Assembly: GCA_041661645.1 (NCBI GenBank)
Contig: JBAZUA010000003.1
Span: 86,841-150,840 of the forward strand
Length of the DNA stretch: 64,000 nt
From: Minisyncoccota bacterium
GTDB taxonomy: Bacteria; Patescibacteriota; Minisyncoccia; Phycocordibacterales; UBA6065
Direction of reading: 5' to 3'
The notes beneath the pieces were generated by a model. It made no database searches and had not been told where the DNA came from. It saw only the letters and a list, made by a program, of their open reading frames with translations. Each line of letters starts with the position of its first letter. Within the stretch, counting starts at the first letter, position 1. This document shows, in pieces, positions 41,993-59,788 of the stretch. A program made the translations under genes and the position numbers.

Positions 41993-42885
41993 ATCTCTAT
42001 TCCGATTATGTTAAACCCTCAATCAAAAGCGGACTAGATAAGACCAGTTTCTGGCCTTGTTTAAGTACCGCTCAGACCGAGCGGTTTTTAATTTTCGGGA
42101 GGTGCTGTTATTTGAAATACGAACCCCGTCCCACTAGTCTTCCGCCCTCAAAAGCGGATGGTCTTTTCAAGAGTGGAGACGACTACATTCGTACGTTAGA
42201 TCGTGCGGATGTAAAACCTGCATCTTTCTCCCAGGAAGAGAGGATGCAGTGCAACAGGTAAAAATTAAATTGTATGAGTGTTCGTTGTAAGCGAACACTC
42301 TCATTGAGAATGAGTTTAAGTGGTTTTTAAATTTCCTAATAGGAAATTTAAGAGCATATGGTGGATGCCTTGGCTTCTGAGAAGCGATGAAGGACGTTGC
42401 GTAGCGACGATATGTTCGGGGAGCTGCCGAGCGAGCTTTGATCCGAACGTTTCCGAATGAGGAAACTCCATGTCGAGTGATCGACATGACCTTGGCCTTT
42501 ATGGTCAAGGAGCATACCCTGGGAAGTAAAACATTTCAGTACCAGGAGGAAGAGAAAACAATGTCCGCGTACTGCGGACGATATTTCCTTAGTAGTGGCG
42601 AGCGAAAGGGAAAGAGCCCAAACCTAGTCTTAATCGTGCGGTATGTCGCAAGACGTGCAGCGCGATTAAGACTGGGGGTTGTAAGATGATGATGTCACTA
42701 TTTATAGTGGAAAGAGTTACAAAATGTTTTGTTAGCAGAATTGGCTGGAAAGCCAGACCCTAGTGAGTGATAGTCTCGTATGCGAAAATAAAACATCTCT
42801 TTTATTGTCATTCTTGAGTACCCCAGGACACGAAAAGCTTGGGGGAATCTACCGGAACTAACCGGTAAGGCTAAATATTCCAGAA

Positions 42886-42918
<33 letters not shown>

Positions 42919-43505
42919 CGAAAAGAACCCCGGAGAGGGGAGTGAAATAGACCTGAAACCATATGCTTACAAGGAGTCGGAGCGGTAATTTATTACCGTC
43001 ACGGCGTGCCTATTGAAGAATGAGCCAACGAGTTAATGCATGCTGCAAGGCTAAGGGCTTGAATGCCCGGAGCCGCAGGGAAACCGAGTGTGAATAGCGC
43101 GACTCAGTAGTATGTATTAGACCCGAAGCCGGGTGAGCTTGCCATGTGCAGGTTGAAGTTTGTCGAAAGACAGATGGAGGACCGAACGCTAGAGACGTGC
43201 AATACTCTGCGATGACATGTGGTATGGAGTGATAAGCTCATCGAACTCGGTAATAGCTGGTTCTCTCCGAAATATGTTTAGGCATAGCGTCGTATGTTCC
43301 CACGAGGGGTAGAGCACTGGAAGATTCTGACAGGTAGAAATACCGCAGAACCTATCAAACTCCGAATACTCGTGGTTAAAAGTACGGCAGTAAGACCGTG
43401 GGGGCTAAGCTCCACAGGTCAAAAGGGAAACAGCCCGCATCTCAATTTAAGGTCCCAAAATTCATGCTAAGTACAAGTGAGGTGGTGAATCTTCTCTGAC
43501 GGTGA

Positions 43506-43537
<32 letters not shown>

Positions 43538-44389
43538 GAAAGCGTAACAGCTCACTCACTTAGAGGGTTTGCGCCGCAGATGATCGGGGTTAAAGCATGA
43601 TACCGAAACTGAGGATTGCATCCATATTCGTATGGGTGCACTGGTAGGAGAGTATTCTACTCTGCGATGAAGGCAAAGGGGTGACCCATGCTGGAGCGTG
43701 TAGAAGTAAGAATGTTGGCACAAGTAACCACAATGCGGATGAGAAATCCGCACGCCGGAAGATTAAGGTTTCCTTCGCAATGGATTTCAGCGAAGGGTTA
43801 GTCGGGCCTAAGGGGATGGTGAAAACCGTACCTGATGGACACATGGTTAATATTCCATGACTGGCGTTTGGTGCGATGGGAGGACGGAGCACAGTATGTG
43901 TAGCCCCTTATTGGATTGGGGTTGTTGGTCTCAGGGCGATATGCGAGGAAAATCCCGCATTCTGCATTTATTTGCGAGCCTAAGGACAGACGGGAAGGCT
44001 GGGTTCGCCCAGCGGAACTACACAGAGCGAGCTTTCAAGAAAATTCTCTAAGCATAACCAAACGCTATCCGTACCGAAAACCGAAACAGGTGATCGGCTC
44101 GAGGAGAGCAAGGCGAACGAGTGAAGGTCCTTCAAGGAACTCGGCAAAAAATCAGCCGTAAGTTAGCGATAAGGCTTGCCCTCTCTTTATTGAGGGGGCC
44201 GCAGCGAAAGTATGCCTGGCGACTGTTTATCAAAAACACAGCTCCCTGCGAACTCGTAAGAGGATGTATAGGGGGTGACACTTGACCAATGCCAGAAGGT
44301 CAACCAGCGGCGTTGCCACGTATTTATACGTGGTGGTGACTGCTGTAAGCCCTGGTGAATGTCGGCGGTAACTATAACCGTCCTAAGGT

Positions 44390-44606
44390 TCTGCATCTTT
44401 CGCAAGAAGGGTGCAGAAGGACTGGGACGGTCATAGCAGTGTTAGATGAACAAGAACCTAATAGAAGTTACACAAATAGCTACCTGACATCGCAGTAATG
44501 CATTGTCAGTCCACACATGATCAACAAGAGACCAACGTCATGGATCCGAACTCGTCAATTCGTTGATGGGAGGATTAAGATAGAGTCCGACTTAGAGGAA
44601 TAGTTG
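44390..44606 (+). ncRNA. putative group I intron (217 nt) in 23S, between E. coli-equivalent U1931 and A1932 (CCUAAGGU | AGCGAAAUUCC)
   Basis: Exon sequence is contiguous with E. coli once 44390-44606 is removed; 5' exon ends in U, insert ends in G; internal AAGATAGAGTCCGAC resembles the group I J8/7-P7 3' strand. Confidence 0.5.
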
Positions 44607-45267
44607 AGCGCAATTCCTTGTCAGGTAAGTTCTGACGCGTTGAATAGTGTAACGTCTGGGCAACTGTCTCGAAGGACAGCTCGGTGAAAATACAATCCCG
44701 GTGAAGATGCCGGGTACCTGCAGTTAGACGAAAAGACCCTAGAAGCTTTACTATAGCTTGATATTGAGTATACGATTCTGATGCGTAGCATAGACGTGAG
44801 GATTTGAAGTGCGCTTTCGGGTAGCATGGATCCGCCAGTGAAATAGCGTTCTTCAGTGTTGTATATTCTAACCCCGAGGGCAAAAACCGCGGGAGACAGT
44901 ATCTGGTGGGTAGTTTTAGTGGGGCGCTATCCTCCTAAAAAGTAACGGAGGAGCCTATTAAGGTCAGTTAGCCGTGAATGGAAACCATGGCGATAGTGTA
45001 TGGGCATAAACTGGCTTAACTGTAAGACGTACATGTCGAGCAGATGCGAAAGCAGAGCTAAGTGAACCGACGGATCGCGTTAGATGCGGCCGGAGATTAT
45101 CGGACAAAAGCTACCCTAGGGATAACAGGCTCGTTCCGCCTAAGAGTTCATATCGACGGCGGAGTTCGGCACCTCGATGTCGGCTCATCTTATCCTGGGG
45201 CTGGAGAAGGTCCCAAGGGTTTGGCTGTTCGCCAATTAAAAAGGTACGTGAGCTGGGTTCAGACCGT

Positions 45268-45556
45268 TCAGAAGGTGATTGCGCATAGTCGCGCGATCAT
45301 GCACTGGACAGTCTGAATCCCTCGGACATCATGAGGAAAAAAGAGACAACAACCAATCACGGCGCCCGCAACGAGCAATCATTGCGGAGCCAGTTAACTA
45401 ATATCGGTGAAGCCCGACAGGCGCAAGCTTGGGGTAATACCGAGGGAAGCAGAGTCATATCTGCACCCGTAGAGACTACACGTTAACCTCCACATCGAAA
45501 TAATGAGATGTGGATGAAGATATAGTCCAATGCACAGAGTAATTTGTGAAAACATG
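45268..45556 (+). ncRNA. putative group I intron (289 nt) in 23S at the E. coli-equivalent L2593 site (GAACGU | CGUGAGACAG)
   Basis: Exons rejoin to GAGCTGGGTTCAGACCGT/CGTGAGACAGGTTGGTC; 5' exon ends in U, intron ends in G; contains GTAGAGACTACACG (P7 5'-like GACUA) and GAAGATATAGTCC, which matches the Tetrahymena J8/7-P7 element AAGAUAUAGUC. Confidence 0.6.
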
Positions 45557-45956
45557 CGTGAGACAGGTTGGTCTCCTATCTACTGCAGGCGTTGATTCTT
45601 GAGGAGTTTTGCTTCTAGTACGAGAGGACCGAAGTGAACGGACCGCTGGTCTGCCTGCTGTCACGCCCGTGGCAACGCAGGGTAGCTATGTCCGGAACGG
45701 ATAACCACTGAAAGCATCTAAGTGGGAAGCCGCCTCCAAGATAAGGAATCGTTTGAGGGCCCTAGGAGACTACTAGGTTGATAGGCTTTAGGTGTACACG
45801 CAGCAATGCGTTGAGCCGAGAAGTACTAATTACCCGATCTTATTAGGAAATTTATGAATCACTCATGGCGAGGGCCATGATTACTGATTCTTGATGATTT
45901 AATTATATTTGTTGCAAGTTCGTATTCCTGAAAACAGCACGATTGAATTCTGTGTT

Positions 45957-46062
45957 CTGGTGATTTAACGCGGTGGCACCACCTCTTCCCATCCCGAACA
46001 GAGAAGTTAAACGCCGTAGTGCCGATGATAGTCCTTATGGGCGAAAGTAGGTAGTCGCCAGT
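45957..46062 (+). rRNA. rrf: 5S ribosomal RNA
   Basis: GCGGTGGCACCACCTCTTCCCATCCCGAACAGAGAAGTTAAACGCCGTAGTGCCGATGATAGT...GTAGGTAGTCGCCAG; flanking processing stem GATTGAATTCTGTG / CACAGAATTCAATC. Confidence 0.85.
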
Positions 46063-46081
46063 ACACAGAATTCAATCAAAG

Positions 46082-57218: not shown

Positions 57219-57532
57219 GGTTGTTACCCCTCAAGTAGAGGGGGAAAAAGTTTTCGGTCTTTGAAATAATTATTGTTATTAAATATTTGAGAACGTGCAG
57301 TAGAAAACTGGTTATAAAGTTTCTACGCATTGTGCAAGTTAATTCAATTGAGAAGTTGGTTGTCGCAATTCGATGCAGATTCAGCATTCGATGCGACGTT
57401 AAACATATATAGGATTGTGGAGACCCCGGTAGCACGGGGAATCCCAGAACAAAGTAGTGAGCACTCATACTGTGATCTATTTTGTTCCGTTCGTCTTTCA
57501 GTGCACTCTTTCGGGAGTTTGCTGAAAGATTT

Positions 57533-59023
57533 AAAACAAGAGTTTGATCCTAGCTCAGGATGAACGCTGGCGGCGTGGATAAGGCATGCAAGTCAAGGGG
57601 GCCGCAAGGCAACCGGCGAACGAGGTAGTAATAAGTAGGTACGAACCTTCAAGTCAAGCATAGCTCGTCGAAAGACGGGGTAATTCTTGATAGTCCCTTC
57701 GGGGTAAAGATTTATCGCTTGAAGATCGGCCTGCTCGGTATCAGCTAGTTGGTGAGGTAAAAGCTCACCAAGGCAATGACGCCTAGGGGACCTGAGAGGG
57801 TGACCCCCACCGATGGAACTGAGACACGGTCCATACACCTACGGGTGGCCGCAGTCGAGAATCTTCCGCAATGGACGAAAGTCTGACGGAGCGACGCCGC
57901 GTGCAGGATGAAGTCCTTCGGGATGTAAACTGCTTTTATAGGGGAGGAAGTTTATTGACGTTACCCTAAGAATAAGAGGTTGCTAAACTCGTGCCAGCAG
58001 CAGCGGTAATACGAGTGCCTCAAGCGTTATCCGGAATCATTGGGCGTAAAGGGTTTGTAGGTGGTCATGTTAGTCTTTCGTTAAATTTCCCGGCTTAACC
58101 GGGAACATGCGGAGGAAACGGCATGACTTGAGGATGCAAGGGGTCTGCGGAACTCATAGTGTAGCGGTGAAATGCGTTGATATTATGGGGAACACCAAAA
58201 GCGAAGGCAGCAGACTGGGGCACTCCTGACACTGAAAAACGAAAGCGTGGGTAGCGAATGGGATTAGATACCCCAGTAGTCCACGCCCTAAACGATCTTC
58301 TCTAGCTATTTGGAGTATCGACCCTCTGAGTGGCGTAGCTAACGCGTTAAGAGAAGCGCCTGGGTAGTACGACCGCAAGGTTAAAACTCAAAGGAATAGA
58401 CGGGGACTTGCACAAGCGGAGGATCATGTGGTTTAATTCGATGGTAAACGAAGAACCTTACCAGGGTTGGAAATCTAGTTGAAGCCGAGCAGAAACGTTC
58501 GGCGCCGCAAGGCAATTAGACAGGTGCTGCATGGTCGTCGTCAGTTCGTGATTTGAATTGTTCCCTTCAGTGGGGTAACGAACGCAACCCTCATTGCCTG
58601 TTACAAGTGTCAGGCGAGACTGCCCAGCTTTTTGGTCACAATCGAAAGATTGCGCACAAGAAGCTGGGAGGAAGGTGAGGATGACGCCAGATCAGCATGG
58701 CCCTTTGATACCCTGGGCTACACACGTGATACAATGGCACTTACAACGCGAAGCGACGGGGAAACCCTGAGCAAATCGTTTAAAGAGTGCCCTAGTTCGG
58801 ATAGGAGTCTGCAACTCGACTCCTTGAAGCTGGATTCGCTAGTAATCTCGGGTCAGCTATACCGAGGTGAATACGTTCTCAAGTCTTGTACTCACCGCCC
58901 GTCAACTCAAGGGAGTTGGGAGTGCCCGAAGTCCGCGCTTGTCGCGGCCTAAGGCAAGCTCAATGACAGGGAGTAAGTCGTAACAAGGCACGGGTAGCGG
59001 AAGCTGCTCGTGGATTATTTCAA
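57533..59023 (+). rRNA. rrs: 16S ribosomal RNA (about 1.49 kb, no intron), 3' tail lacking the CCUCC anti-Shine-Dalgarno
   Basis: 5' AGAGTTTGATCCTAGCTCAGGATGAACGCTGGCGGCG; GTGCCAGCAGCAGCGGTAATAC (515 site variant); 3' GTCGTAACAAGGCACGGGTAGCGGAAGCTGCTCGTGGATTATTTCA. Confidence 0.9.
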
Positions 59024-59160
59024 GTGAAAACCGCTTTCCACTCTGTGGAGAGCTTACGGAGTCGATCATATTTATATGGGTTTTTCAGATACCTACAACT
59101 GAATGGACGTCAGGGAAGAACTGGCAAACAGAACGGAGCAAAGTAGAGGATAGTATGAAG

Positions 59161-59190
59161 AAAAAACCACCCGAAAGGGTGGTTTTTTCG
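59161..59190 (+). terminator. rho-independent terminator downstream of 16S
   Basis: AAAAAACCACCCgaaaGGGTGGTTTTTTCG. Confidence 0.75.
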
Positions 59191-59227
59191 TTGTGGCATA
59201 AGGGTTTTACGGAAGTAGGGGAAGGTA

Positions 59228-59255
59228 TTGACAAAAGTGTTGTATATGATATGAT
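59228..59255 (+). promoter_or_regulatory. candidate promoter (TTGACA-16-TATGAT) for the small ORF and tRNA-Ile
   Basis: Hexamers with 16-nt spacing between the 16S terminator and the 59328 ORF. Confidence 0.35.
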
Positions 59256-59327
59256 TATAATGTAAAAGCTCGGAGGGAGACCTCCTTTTGTCAGTCAGAG
59301 GGAATAGGAAACAGCCTGATTTCATCA

Positions 59328-59576
59328 ATGAAAACCAGTAGAACTCTTACGGATCTTGGTGTCGGTCACCATGAATCCCTGGGGGAGAAATTCCTCCGTC
59401 TCGTGAGCTCTGTAACGGAACTCACCGCGAAGCAGAAGATTCTGCTCGCCATCCCGGTCGGAATTGTCAGCGCTCCTCTTGCGTTTGGCATGATCCGATT
59501 CATCCTCATCGTTGGTTTCGGAAAATCAGCAGTCCCCATCATGTGGTTGGACTGGTGGTGGGTTTGGCTTCGGTAG
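59328..59576 (+). CDS. hypothetical small membrane protein
   Basis: 82-aa ORF with a C-terminal hydrophobic/Trp-rich segment; terminator follows. Confidence 0.3.
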   Translation: MKTSRTLTDLGVGHHESLGEKFLRLVSSVTELTAKQKILLAIPVGIVSAPLAFGMIRFILIVGFGKSAVPIMWLDWWWVWLR

Positions 59577-59588
59577 CCACCCACAAAC

Positions 59589-59628
59589 TCTGCGCCCCTG
59601 GCACCCGTGCCCGCGGCGCAGTTTTTTA
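59589..59628 (+). terminator. rho-independent terminator
   Basis: CTGCGCCcctggcacccgtgcccgcGGCGCAGTTTTTT. Confidence 0.6.
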
Positions 59629-59700
59629 TTGTCAAAACAGCCGTTTTCTGCTATATTTTCCAAGCTTCAAGCCAGGGTTGGGGCAGGGGTTCATAGACAT

Positions 59701-59773
59701 GCGCGTATAGCTCAGTTGGTAGAGCACATCACTGATACTGATGGGGTCCTAGGTTCAAATCCTAGTACGCGCA
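59701..59773 (+). tRNA. tRNA-Ile (anticodon GAT), no encoded CCA
   Basis: GCGCGTA acceptor, D-arm GCTCAGTTGGTAGAGC, anticodon loop CTGATAC, T-arm CTAGGTTCAAATCCTAG, 3' TACGCGCA. Confidence 0.85.
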
Positions 59774-59788
59774 CTAATACACAAAGCC

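Follow-up and report, generated by a model that had tools for sequence, protein, structure and literature searches.

A probable ORF-less group I intron in helix 93 of a CPR 23S rRNA gene, with a conserved exon-antisense module in its 5' region

How can a large-subunit rRNA carry 289 extra nucleotides in the middle of its catalytic centre, and what would remove them? The question is raised by a bacterial 23S gene at positions 42334-45850 of the window, which is the name used here for the whole stretch of 64,000 nt (64 kb) that was analysed. The gene matches the Rfam LSU_rRNA_bacteria model with 2266 bits and is 3517 nt long as compared with the 2925 positions of the model, and alignment with E. 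coli rrlH (L001) assigns the extra length to 289 nt after position 2593, 217 nt after 1931 and about 90 nt near 284. The largest of these insertions is placed by MAFFT alignment with E. coli rrlH exactly after U2593 (window 45268-45556), where it splits the 5' strand of helix 93 and adjoins U2585 and A2602. An earlier note on this DNA had proposed that a group I intron lies here, that it follows an exon U and ends in G, and that removal of 289 nt restores a conserved loop sequence beginning with GAACGU. The interval proves exact and both terminal bases are as described (T at 45267, G at 45556), with the 3' exon beginning CGTGAGACAG; the restored junction reads GACCGU followed by CGUGAGACAG, so that the hexamer given in the note has to be corrected. 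The boundaries cannot be slid, as the first base of the insert is T against C at the start of the 3' exon, and its last base is G against T at the end of the 5' exon. Helix 93 here pairs C at position 2590 with G at 2604, a compensated change, and removal of exactly 289 nt thus restores this helix together with its GUGA loop and the bulged A2602. Shifted splice sites (a 5' exon ending in GUU, or a 3' site after GC or GCG) were considered and rejected, since helix 93 would gain or lose a base or the terminal G would be lost. The resemblance of the intron start to a target-site duplication (UCAGAAGGU against UCAGACCGU) was likewise set aside, as other family members begin with UGAU, GGAG or GAGG, each in covariation with its own partner strand.

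The nature of the insert can be judged from covariance-model searches and from its relatives. A local permissive scan of 45200-45620 with Rfam RF00028 (Intron_gpI) aligned window 45305-45549 with model positions 1-253, the full model length, at 44.4 bits (E 3.1e-10). The search that the earlier note had named as its check thus returned a full-length match, with the reservation that the score lies below the Rfam gathering score of 50 bits and that a default scan does not report the insert. The family straddles this operational threshold: above it, where homologues span 54-74 bits, are the end-to-end homologues L126 (57.8 bits, 87% identical to the window intron), L110 (57.2), L073 (63.9), L054 (66.2) and L036 (66.9), and below it are L129 (41.0) and L096 (33.8). 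A structure derived from the window sequence was then evaluated on an alignment (A1) that comprised 27 window-type introns together with the flanking exon sequence. In these 27 sequences, 87.4% of the cells are paired, as compared with 27-45% after the 3' partners had been slid by 1-3 columns. Compensatory changes occur in 39 of the 63 pairs and none of 500 shuffles reaches the observed score, a control that related sequences without any structure can also exceed, which makes the slid-partner control the stronger one here. In particular, covariation extends to all pairs of P3 (6/6), P2 (9/9) and P5 (4/4) and to five of the six pairs of P9, P7 shows no variation and P4 varies in one of its five pairs, and P8 has compensatory changes in seven of eight pairs but is poorly aligned by MAFFT, with 58% paired. 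The P3/P7 pseudoknot was part of this fold, and all helices were also confirmed in the window sequence.

The single motifs point in the same direction. The GACUA and the second conserved motif on which the earlier note had relied are both found, GACTA at 45474 and AAGATATAGTC at 45517, the latter occurring once in the 64-kb window against about 0.03 copies expected by chance on both strands by our own arithmetic. GUAGA-GACUA and GAAGAUAUAGUC are invariant (27/27) and agree with the Rfam consensus, the core motifs GUAGAGACUA and GAAGAUAUAGUCC are invariant in the same alignment, and all core junction motifs of the window intron agree with the family consensus. J4/5 (GAA) and J5/4 (AAU) are A-rich. 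P9.0 is formed by J7/9 and the two bases that precede the terminal G; in the sister clade its A-U pairing is replaced by U-A, which fixes the 3' splice site. The predicted catalytic core is complete, as it comprises P3-P9 with the P3/P7 pseudoknot, P4-P6, P7 (GACUA/UAGUC), J8/7 (AAGAUAUAG), GNRA loops on P2 and P9, P9.0 and a terminal G (Table 1). Within P7, the pair between G207 (45474) and C260 (45527) is presumed to bind guanosine, an assignment that we make by analogy with what we take to be its Tetrahymena counterpart, G264-C311. On this evidence, the insert is almost certainly a group I intron.

Table 1. Predicted features of the L2593 insert and its exon flanks, in window coordinates; intron numbering is n = window position - 45267.
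Feature	Position	Strand	Basis
5' exon end, 23S nt 2581-2593 (GGGUUCAGACCGU); last U is U2593, predicted 5' splice site	45255-45267	+	E. coli rrlH alignment, sequence
Whole putative intron, 289 nt	45268-45556	+	Rfam match, E. coli alignment, 27-sequence fold
5' module inside loop L1: nt 1-4 (UCAG) with nt 37-40 (CUGG); hairpin 45275-45284/45291-45300	45268-45320	+	MFE fold, helix check, covariation in 27 sequences
Antisense strand, nt 41-53 (ACAGUCUGAAUCC), pairing with exon 45255-45267; A41 opposite U2593	45308-45320	+	MFE fold, helix check, covariation
Small local hairpin CCUC/GAGG, loop GGACAUCAU; clade-specific, poorly supported, region variable in family	45320-45336	+	Sequence check
Candidate internal guide sequence UCACG-GCGC; UCACG with 3' exon CGUGA 45557-45561 (P10), G95-C96-G97 with exon CGU (P1)	45357-45365	+	Invariance and fit, sequence check
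P2 hairpin, 9 pairs, one C·A mismatch, GCAA (GNRA) loop 45375-45378	45366-45387	+	Covariation of all pairs
P3 5' strand GUUAAC, partner 45482-45487	45393-45398	+	Covariation of all pairs
P4-P5 domain: P4 45404-45408/45439-45443, J4/5, P5 45412-45415/45432-45435, J5/4	45404-45443	+	Rfam match, 27-sequence fold, sequence check
P5a, in P4-P5 domain, GCAA loop	45418-45422/45427-45431	+	Rfam match, 27-sequence fold, sequence check
P6 (GGG/CCC) and P6a (GCAGA/UCUGC); site of the extra sequence of the related intron L096	45444-45468	+	Alignment, fold, sequence check
J6/7 (GUAGA) and P7 5' strand GACUA	45469-45478	+	Invariance, Rfam consensus
P3 3' strand; separated from P7 by CAC alone, hence without P7.1/P7.2	45482-45487	+	Fold, sequence check
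P8 hairpin UCCACAUC/GAUGUGGA	45489-45514	+	Sequence check; compensatory changes, poorly aligned
J8/7 and P7 3' strand (UGAAGAUAUAGUC)	45515-45527	+	Rfam match, sequence, 27-sequence fold
P9.0 (AU 45530-45531 with AU 45554-45555) around P9 (CACAGA/UUUGUG, 45533-45548), GUAA loop	45530-45555	+	P9 covariation; P9.0 switch in sister clade
Terminal G (omega-G), predicted 3' splice site	45556	+	Sequence; all introns at the site among the matches listed end in G
3' exon start CGUGAGACAG (23S 2594-2603)	45557-45566	+	Sequence, E. coli alignment

A group I intron of this kind would need a guide that aligns the two exons. Directly 5' of the GNRA-capped P2 hairpin, all 27 sequences carry the invariant motif (U)CACGGCGG, which is the reverse complement of the ligated junction CCGU-CGUG except for a G in place of A opposite U2593. 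Its GCGG half fits the exon CCGU, with U(-1)•G in 27/27 and the following two pairs in 27/27, and (U)CACG fits the 3' exon CGUG(A) as P10, with 95.6% paired over the 27 sequences. The window itself reads UCACGGCGCC, which gives three pairs in P1, including the wobble U2593•G95 (45362) and with C98 mismatched with C2590, and five pairs in P10. This GCGC variant recurs in two independent metagenome contigs (L129, 93% identical, and L126, 87% identical) that carry compensatory differences elsewhere, which indicates that the variant is real. The sixth guide base was found not to covary with exon position -6, which limits P1 to at most 4-5 bp. The position of CACG-GCGG is constant at about 43 nt 5' of P4, yet between 3 and 248 nt separate the motif from the splice site in the different relatives, for which reason the 5' region is best regarded as an insert in loop L1. 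Six relatives that are devoid of this region (L033, L065, L078, L009, L029 and L037) have GGCGG at 3-29 nt from the splice site, where it is the sole possible guide. The stretch UCACG-GCGC at 45357-45365 is likely to be the internal guide sequence; as P1 and P10 do not vary, we infer this role from invariance and fit.

The region inserted in L1 has a pairing of its own. The first 53 nt of the intron form a 17-bp helix with 23S 2581-2593 that spans the splice site and pairs U2593 with A41, and the MFE structure, which is thermodynamically dominant, therefore holds the splice-site U in a Watson-Crick U-A pair and not in a reactive geometry. The helix is 90.8% paired in the family (27 sequences). 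Exon and intron covary at positions 2586 and 2588 (C-G in 22 and U-A in 5; G-C in 14 and A-U in 13), host exon variants being followed by the intron as CAGA/UCUG, CAAA/UUUG and UAGA/UCUA, and the intron-intron part covaries as well; this covariation indicates a genuine helix that is subject to selection. The partner of U(-1) within it is A in 22/27 and G in 2/27, similar to other U positions (21:6 and 27:0), and such a ratio is that of an ordinary helix rather than of a reactive P1, nor does the helix offer a P10. A conventional P1 had been sought in the first 60 nt and was rejected, as the sole strong pairing sets U2593 opposite A and no register gives U•G; the invariant CACGGCGG was found instead. 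Mimicry of the 3' strand of helix 93 by the antisense strand, which has GACAG in common with it, was also discarded, since the family consensus is ACNG with a variable N and the register misfits the bulged A.

How the two pairings might work together can be outlined from established group I chemistry. Before catalysis, the four pairs adjoining the splice site would be exchanged for the guide sequence, whose 3' half would pair with exon CGU so that U2593 faces G95 as the canonical wobble (P1), and whose 5' half would pair with the first five bases of the 3' exon (P10). The outer 9-10 bp of the 5' helix could persist, stacked on the short P1 and tethering the 5' exon. An exogenous guanosine in P7 would attack the bond after U2593, the terminal G would then take the place of the guanosine, and the 3'-OH of U2593 would attack the bond after G45556, so that the exons would be joined and helix 93 restored. 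That the 5' module acts as a clamp or mask is a tentative proposal, to which we give rather less than an even chance. We are similarly cautious about the wider formulation, in which Parcubacteria-type L2593 introns might carry in L1 a conserved stretch of 13-17 nt, antisense to 2581-2593 and covarying with the exon, which would hold the 5' splice site in an unreactive U-A helix until four base pairs are swapped with the true guide (GCGG/GCGC) for U•G. If true, the clamp or mask could tether the 2.6-kb 5' exon to an intron with a P1 of merely 3-5 bp, and it could couple splicing with ribosome assembly or let the freed intron bind 23S rRNA. No description of the 5' module was found in the literature passages searched by keyword, those of PMC11270868 included, a coverage that is incomplete. 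Between the antisense strand and the guide (window 45321-45356, A1 columns 97-190), the family keeps CGAGG (CUCGG in the window's clade) and AGACAUCA; the former resembles the P4 3' strand (CCGAGG) and the latter the J6/7-P7 region (AGACUACACG), and no pairing partner for either motif was found in the 27-intron alignment.

Could the long 5' helix (45255-45267/45308-45320) itself be the catalytic P1, of a group I intron with a non-canonical U-A splice site in which CACGGCG is otherwise used, for instance at the base of P2? It is the most stable local structure in the MFE fold, and it is the sole exon-intron pairing with covariation support, the exon/GCGG pairing being invariant and hence uninformative; in the window's clade, moreover, a GGC/GCC pairing could lengthen P2. 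We nonetheless regard this reading as improbable. The ordinary A:G ratio at U(-1) betrays no selection for the wobble that an intact J4/5-J5/4 receptor would need, and no P10 would form, as the four bases 5' of A41 are engaged with intron nt 1-4 and are unable to pair with the 3' exon, whereas CACG-GCGG fits both exons with an exactly placed wobble in every one of the 27 sequences, and relatives that lack the module retain GGCGG close to the splice site.

The preferred reading, a group I intron guided by UCACG-GCGC, also has to be weighed against the view that the RNA is not spliced at all. An insert kept as an expansion segment, or excised by an RNase without ligation as an intervening sequence to leave a fragmented 23S, would be compatible with the Rfam score under threshold, and a Simkania 23S group I intron is called unspliced in a title cited by PMC11270868; the Introduction of the same survey, however, cites metatranscriptomes (its ref. 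2) as showing that CPR rRNA insertions are removed. Intervening sequences lie at helix tips (H9, H25, H45) and are closed by the pairing of their own ends, whereas this insert is located within the 5' strand of helix 93 beside U2585/A2602 and its ends do not pair mutually in the fold and helix check, the 5' end pairing with internal nt 37-40 and the 3' end lying in P9.0. The conservation of a covarying full core, omega-G, P9.0 and a guide for both exons in a large family would go unexplained without splicing, and the window holds a single 23S gene, all of which makes an unspliced insert highly improbable. Least probable of all is a decayed and catalytically dead relic, or an intron in a non-functional copy of the rRNA gene. 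The weakening of P1 to 3 bp by C98, the lack of an endonuclease gene and an Rfam score lower than that of several relatives could be read in this way, but a three-base exon pairing suffices in the Azoarcus intron, and three sequences 7-13% apart all retain the C98 variant and show compensatory changes in P2, P8 and P9, which indicates selection on the structure. A relic would, in addition, hardly be expected to have core junction motifs that all agree with the family consensus, nor 23S exons that are intact (2266 bits) and 95% identical to those of related MAGs. The insert is very probably a genuine self-splicing group I intron without a gene, located in the 23S catalytic centre.

Its relatives were collected by scanning one genome per species for the pattern GATATAGTC-N(12-42)-GCGTGAGACAG. 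At least 120 loci carry an intron at the L2593 site, and at least about 100 inserts are complete, with lengths of 233-828 nt and, among the matches listed, always with a terminal G; the hosts, among the matches listed, are mostly CPR/Patescibacteria MAGs, others being Omnitrophota, Eremiobacterota, Thermosynechococcus and proteobacterial MAGs. Genes for single-motif LAGLIDADG_1 proteins (Pfam) are present in relatives of about 700 nt. The window copy has no ORF longer than 53 aa within the insert, and its two largest small ORFs have no Pfam match, in keeping with the compact intron without a homing-endonuclease ORF that the earlier note had described. P6 is probably the place where the longer relatives carry their ORF, and the window intron would have lost, or never had, the LAGLIDADG homing-endonuclease gene of the ~700-nt relatives. 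The MAG labels of L038 and L087 (also L054) look mis-binned: contigs labelled 'Promethearchaeota archaeon CR_4' and 'Patiriisocius sp.' hold bacterial 23S genes with L2593 introns (L038, L087), the exon of L087 being the GACCGU/GGUUGG variant found otherwise in CPR-labelled loci and that of L038 the GAACGU/GUUCGG variant.

The host can be placed by the exons. Around the site, they share 95% identity with the exons of three MAGs (Ca. Taylorbacteria L090, Parcubacteria L083 and Paceibacterota L051), the introns of which are merely about 70% identical to the window intron. Taken as a whole, the explanation of the locus as an ORF-less 289-nt group I intron in helix 93 of the peptidyl-transferase centre of a Parcubacteria/Paceibacterota (CPR) host is one that we consider very likely. 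The 23S gene is the only one in the 64-kb window and is followed by a 5S gene at 45956-46063, and this 23S-5S unit stands alone, as the 16S gene and tRNA-Ile(GAT) are found unlinked at 57532-59774 on the same strand, 11.5 kb downstream. Between 5S and 16S lie protein genes (FtsW/RodA family, glycosyltransferases, a sugar transferase) and a tRNA-Leu. No genes related to mobile elements were found among the flanking genes scanned, which are ordinary chromosomal ones (FtsW/RodA, glycosyltransferases, a mechanosensitive channel).

With regard to known introns, the compact layout recalls what we take to be the layout of IC3-type tRNA introns (Azoarcus tRNA-Ile, Anabaena tRNA-Leu), small and with a very short exon-guide pairing and GNRA-capped P2 and P9. 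Like these, as we understand them, the window intron has neither P2.1, P5abc nor P7.1/7.2, and its J6/7-P7 motif GUAGAGACUA is presumably identical to theirs. It differs from them in that its host gene is an rRNA, that its J8/7 (AAGAUAUAG) is as in Tetrahymena and the Rfam consensus, and that it has a large L1 insertion. The sequences of P7 and J8/7 are, we assume, identical to those of the Tetrahymena LSU intron (GACUA ... AAGAUAUAGUC), which lies at site L1925, belongs to subgroup IC1 and has P5abc, P2.1 and P9.1-9.2. The Tetrahymena P(-1), an alternative exon hairpin that competes with P1, provides a precedent for the sequestering of 5'-exon bases that P1 needs. P(-1) is an exon-exon hairpin, whereas the competitor strand of the window lies inside the intron, and the insertion sites and subgroups differ as well.

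The insertion point L2593 is presumably shared with the Chlamydomonas Cr.LSU intron, that of I-CreI. The view of the earlier note that L2593 is a recognised group I site agrees with the site list of a survey of CPR rRNA (Tsurumaki et al. 2024, J Bacteriol, PMC11270868), where 2593 appears, and with the cyanobacterial L2593 introns (Haugen et al. 2007, PMC1995217). The latter, in Synechococcus C9, S. lividus C1 and Thermosynechococcus elongatus, are described in the passages of that paper drawn on here as about 745 nt long, with a LAGLIDADG gene and P7.1/P7.2 of about 65 nt. They have the identical insertion point, a J8/7-P7-P9 3' region that is about 80% shared, and LAGLIDADG in the family, and a Thermosynechococcus MAG (L031) was retrieved by the same DNA pattern as the window-type introns. 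By contrast, only 3 nt (CAC, 45479-45481) separate P7 from the P3 3' strand in the window where the cyanobacterial introns have P7.1/P7.2 of ~65 nt (PMC1995217), and the cyanobacterial L2593 exon is GAACGU against GACCGU in the window. L031-like introns, moreover, have a guide GCGU near nt 10 (most introns of this type read GCGUUC there) and a long canonical P1, and are devoid of the exon-antisense module. Judged from its sequence, the window intron thus shares the site of the cyanobacterial L2593 introns and not their structural type, and since it has CAC alone in place of P7.1/P7.2, it would not be filed in the cyanobacterial/organellar L2593 lineage.

The closest correspondence is with the CPR introns themselves. 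In the passages of the 2024 survey drawn on here, 45% of 23S insertions are classed as group I introns, and LAGLIDADG_1 ORFs are listed at sites 2593, 1917, 1931, 1952, 2604 and 2657 of CPR 23S genes (PMC11270868); for the first description in CPR, the survey refers to its ref. 2. The survey class defined by a CPR host, site 2593 and a cmscan group I hit with E <= 1e-4 (PMC11270868) takes in the window copy, given its E of 3.1e-10 and 95% exon identity to CPR MAGs. Host group, insertion site, Rfam group I detection criterion and relatives with LAGLIDADG_1 are the same as for the CPR 2593 introns of these passages, the difference being that the window copy has no ORF. The passages give positions, classes and ORFs, and no secondary structures or guide sequences were seen in them (PMC11270868). 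U1931, the site of the second insertion in the window 23S gene, is on the survey list as well (PMC11270868). The element adds an ORF-less example to a kind of CPR rRNA intron that is known, common and already catalogued, and the exon-antisense module and the neighbour at U1931 are the sole parts that go beyond routine.

As an addition to a large CPR intron family, the element contributes one ORF-less member at a site familiar from earlier work on Chlamydomonas and cyanobacteria. For annotation, it matters that introns bring the 23S gene to 3.5 kb, and the mature rRNA and the design of probes and primers must allow for them. The 5' region is of wider interest in that a guide as short as three base pairs coexists with a far stronger, covarying intron-exon helix that buries the splice site. 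If this helix controls or assists splicing, it would represent a natural case of a bacterial group I intron that tethers its exon or masks its splice site, for which the relatives that lack the module are natural controls, and the whole would make a simple system for in vitro work.

Two further departures from E. coli occur in the same 23S gene. At window 44390-44606, an insertion of 217 nt lies exactly after E. coli U1931 and ends in G, with homologues in L083 (84%), L090 and L124 (77%) and L043 (68%). A consensus fold of five sequences gives an anchor helix of exon CCGUCCUA with intron UGGGACGG, which has one compensatory change, and a long hairpin in which the splice-site U is paired with A. 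The junction GGU-AGC is perfectly complementary to an invariant GCUACC, which sets A and not G opposite the U. The insert also has a GUAA-capped hairpin, covarying P3-like and P8-like helices and AAGAUAGAGUCC; the two P3 strands are separated by 15 nt, which leaves no room for a P4-P6 domain, and against the Rfam group I model it scores 16 bits (E ~0.06-0.1) with 114 core positions skipped. This insert may be a reduced element derived from a group I intron. Its 5' architecture is of the kind seen in the L2593 intron and it seems to be without P4-P6, which hints at a wider undescribed design among CPR rRNA introns. On contigs L070 and L006, one 23S gene each has two separate Rfam group I matches, which suggests that multiple introns per 23S are common in these lineages. 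Finally, about 90 extra nt at window 42635-42724, in 23S domain I near E. coli position 284, are resolved by the Rfam alignment into two insertions of about 31 and 21 nt, and look like an expansion or intervening sequence rather than an intron.
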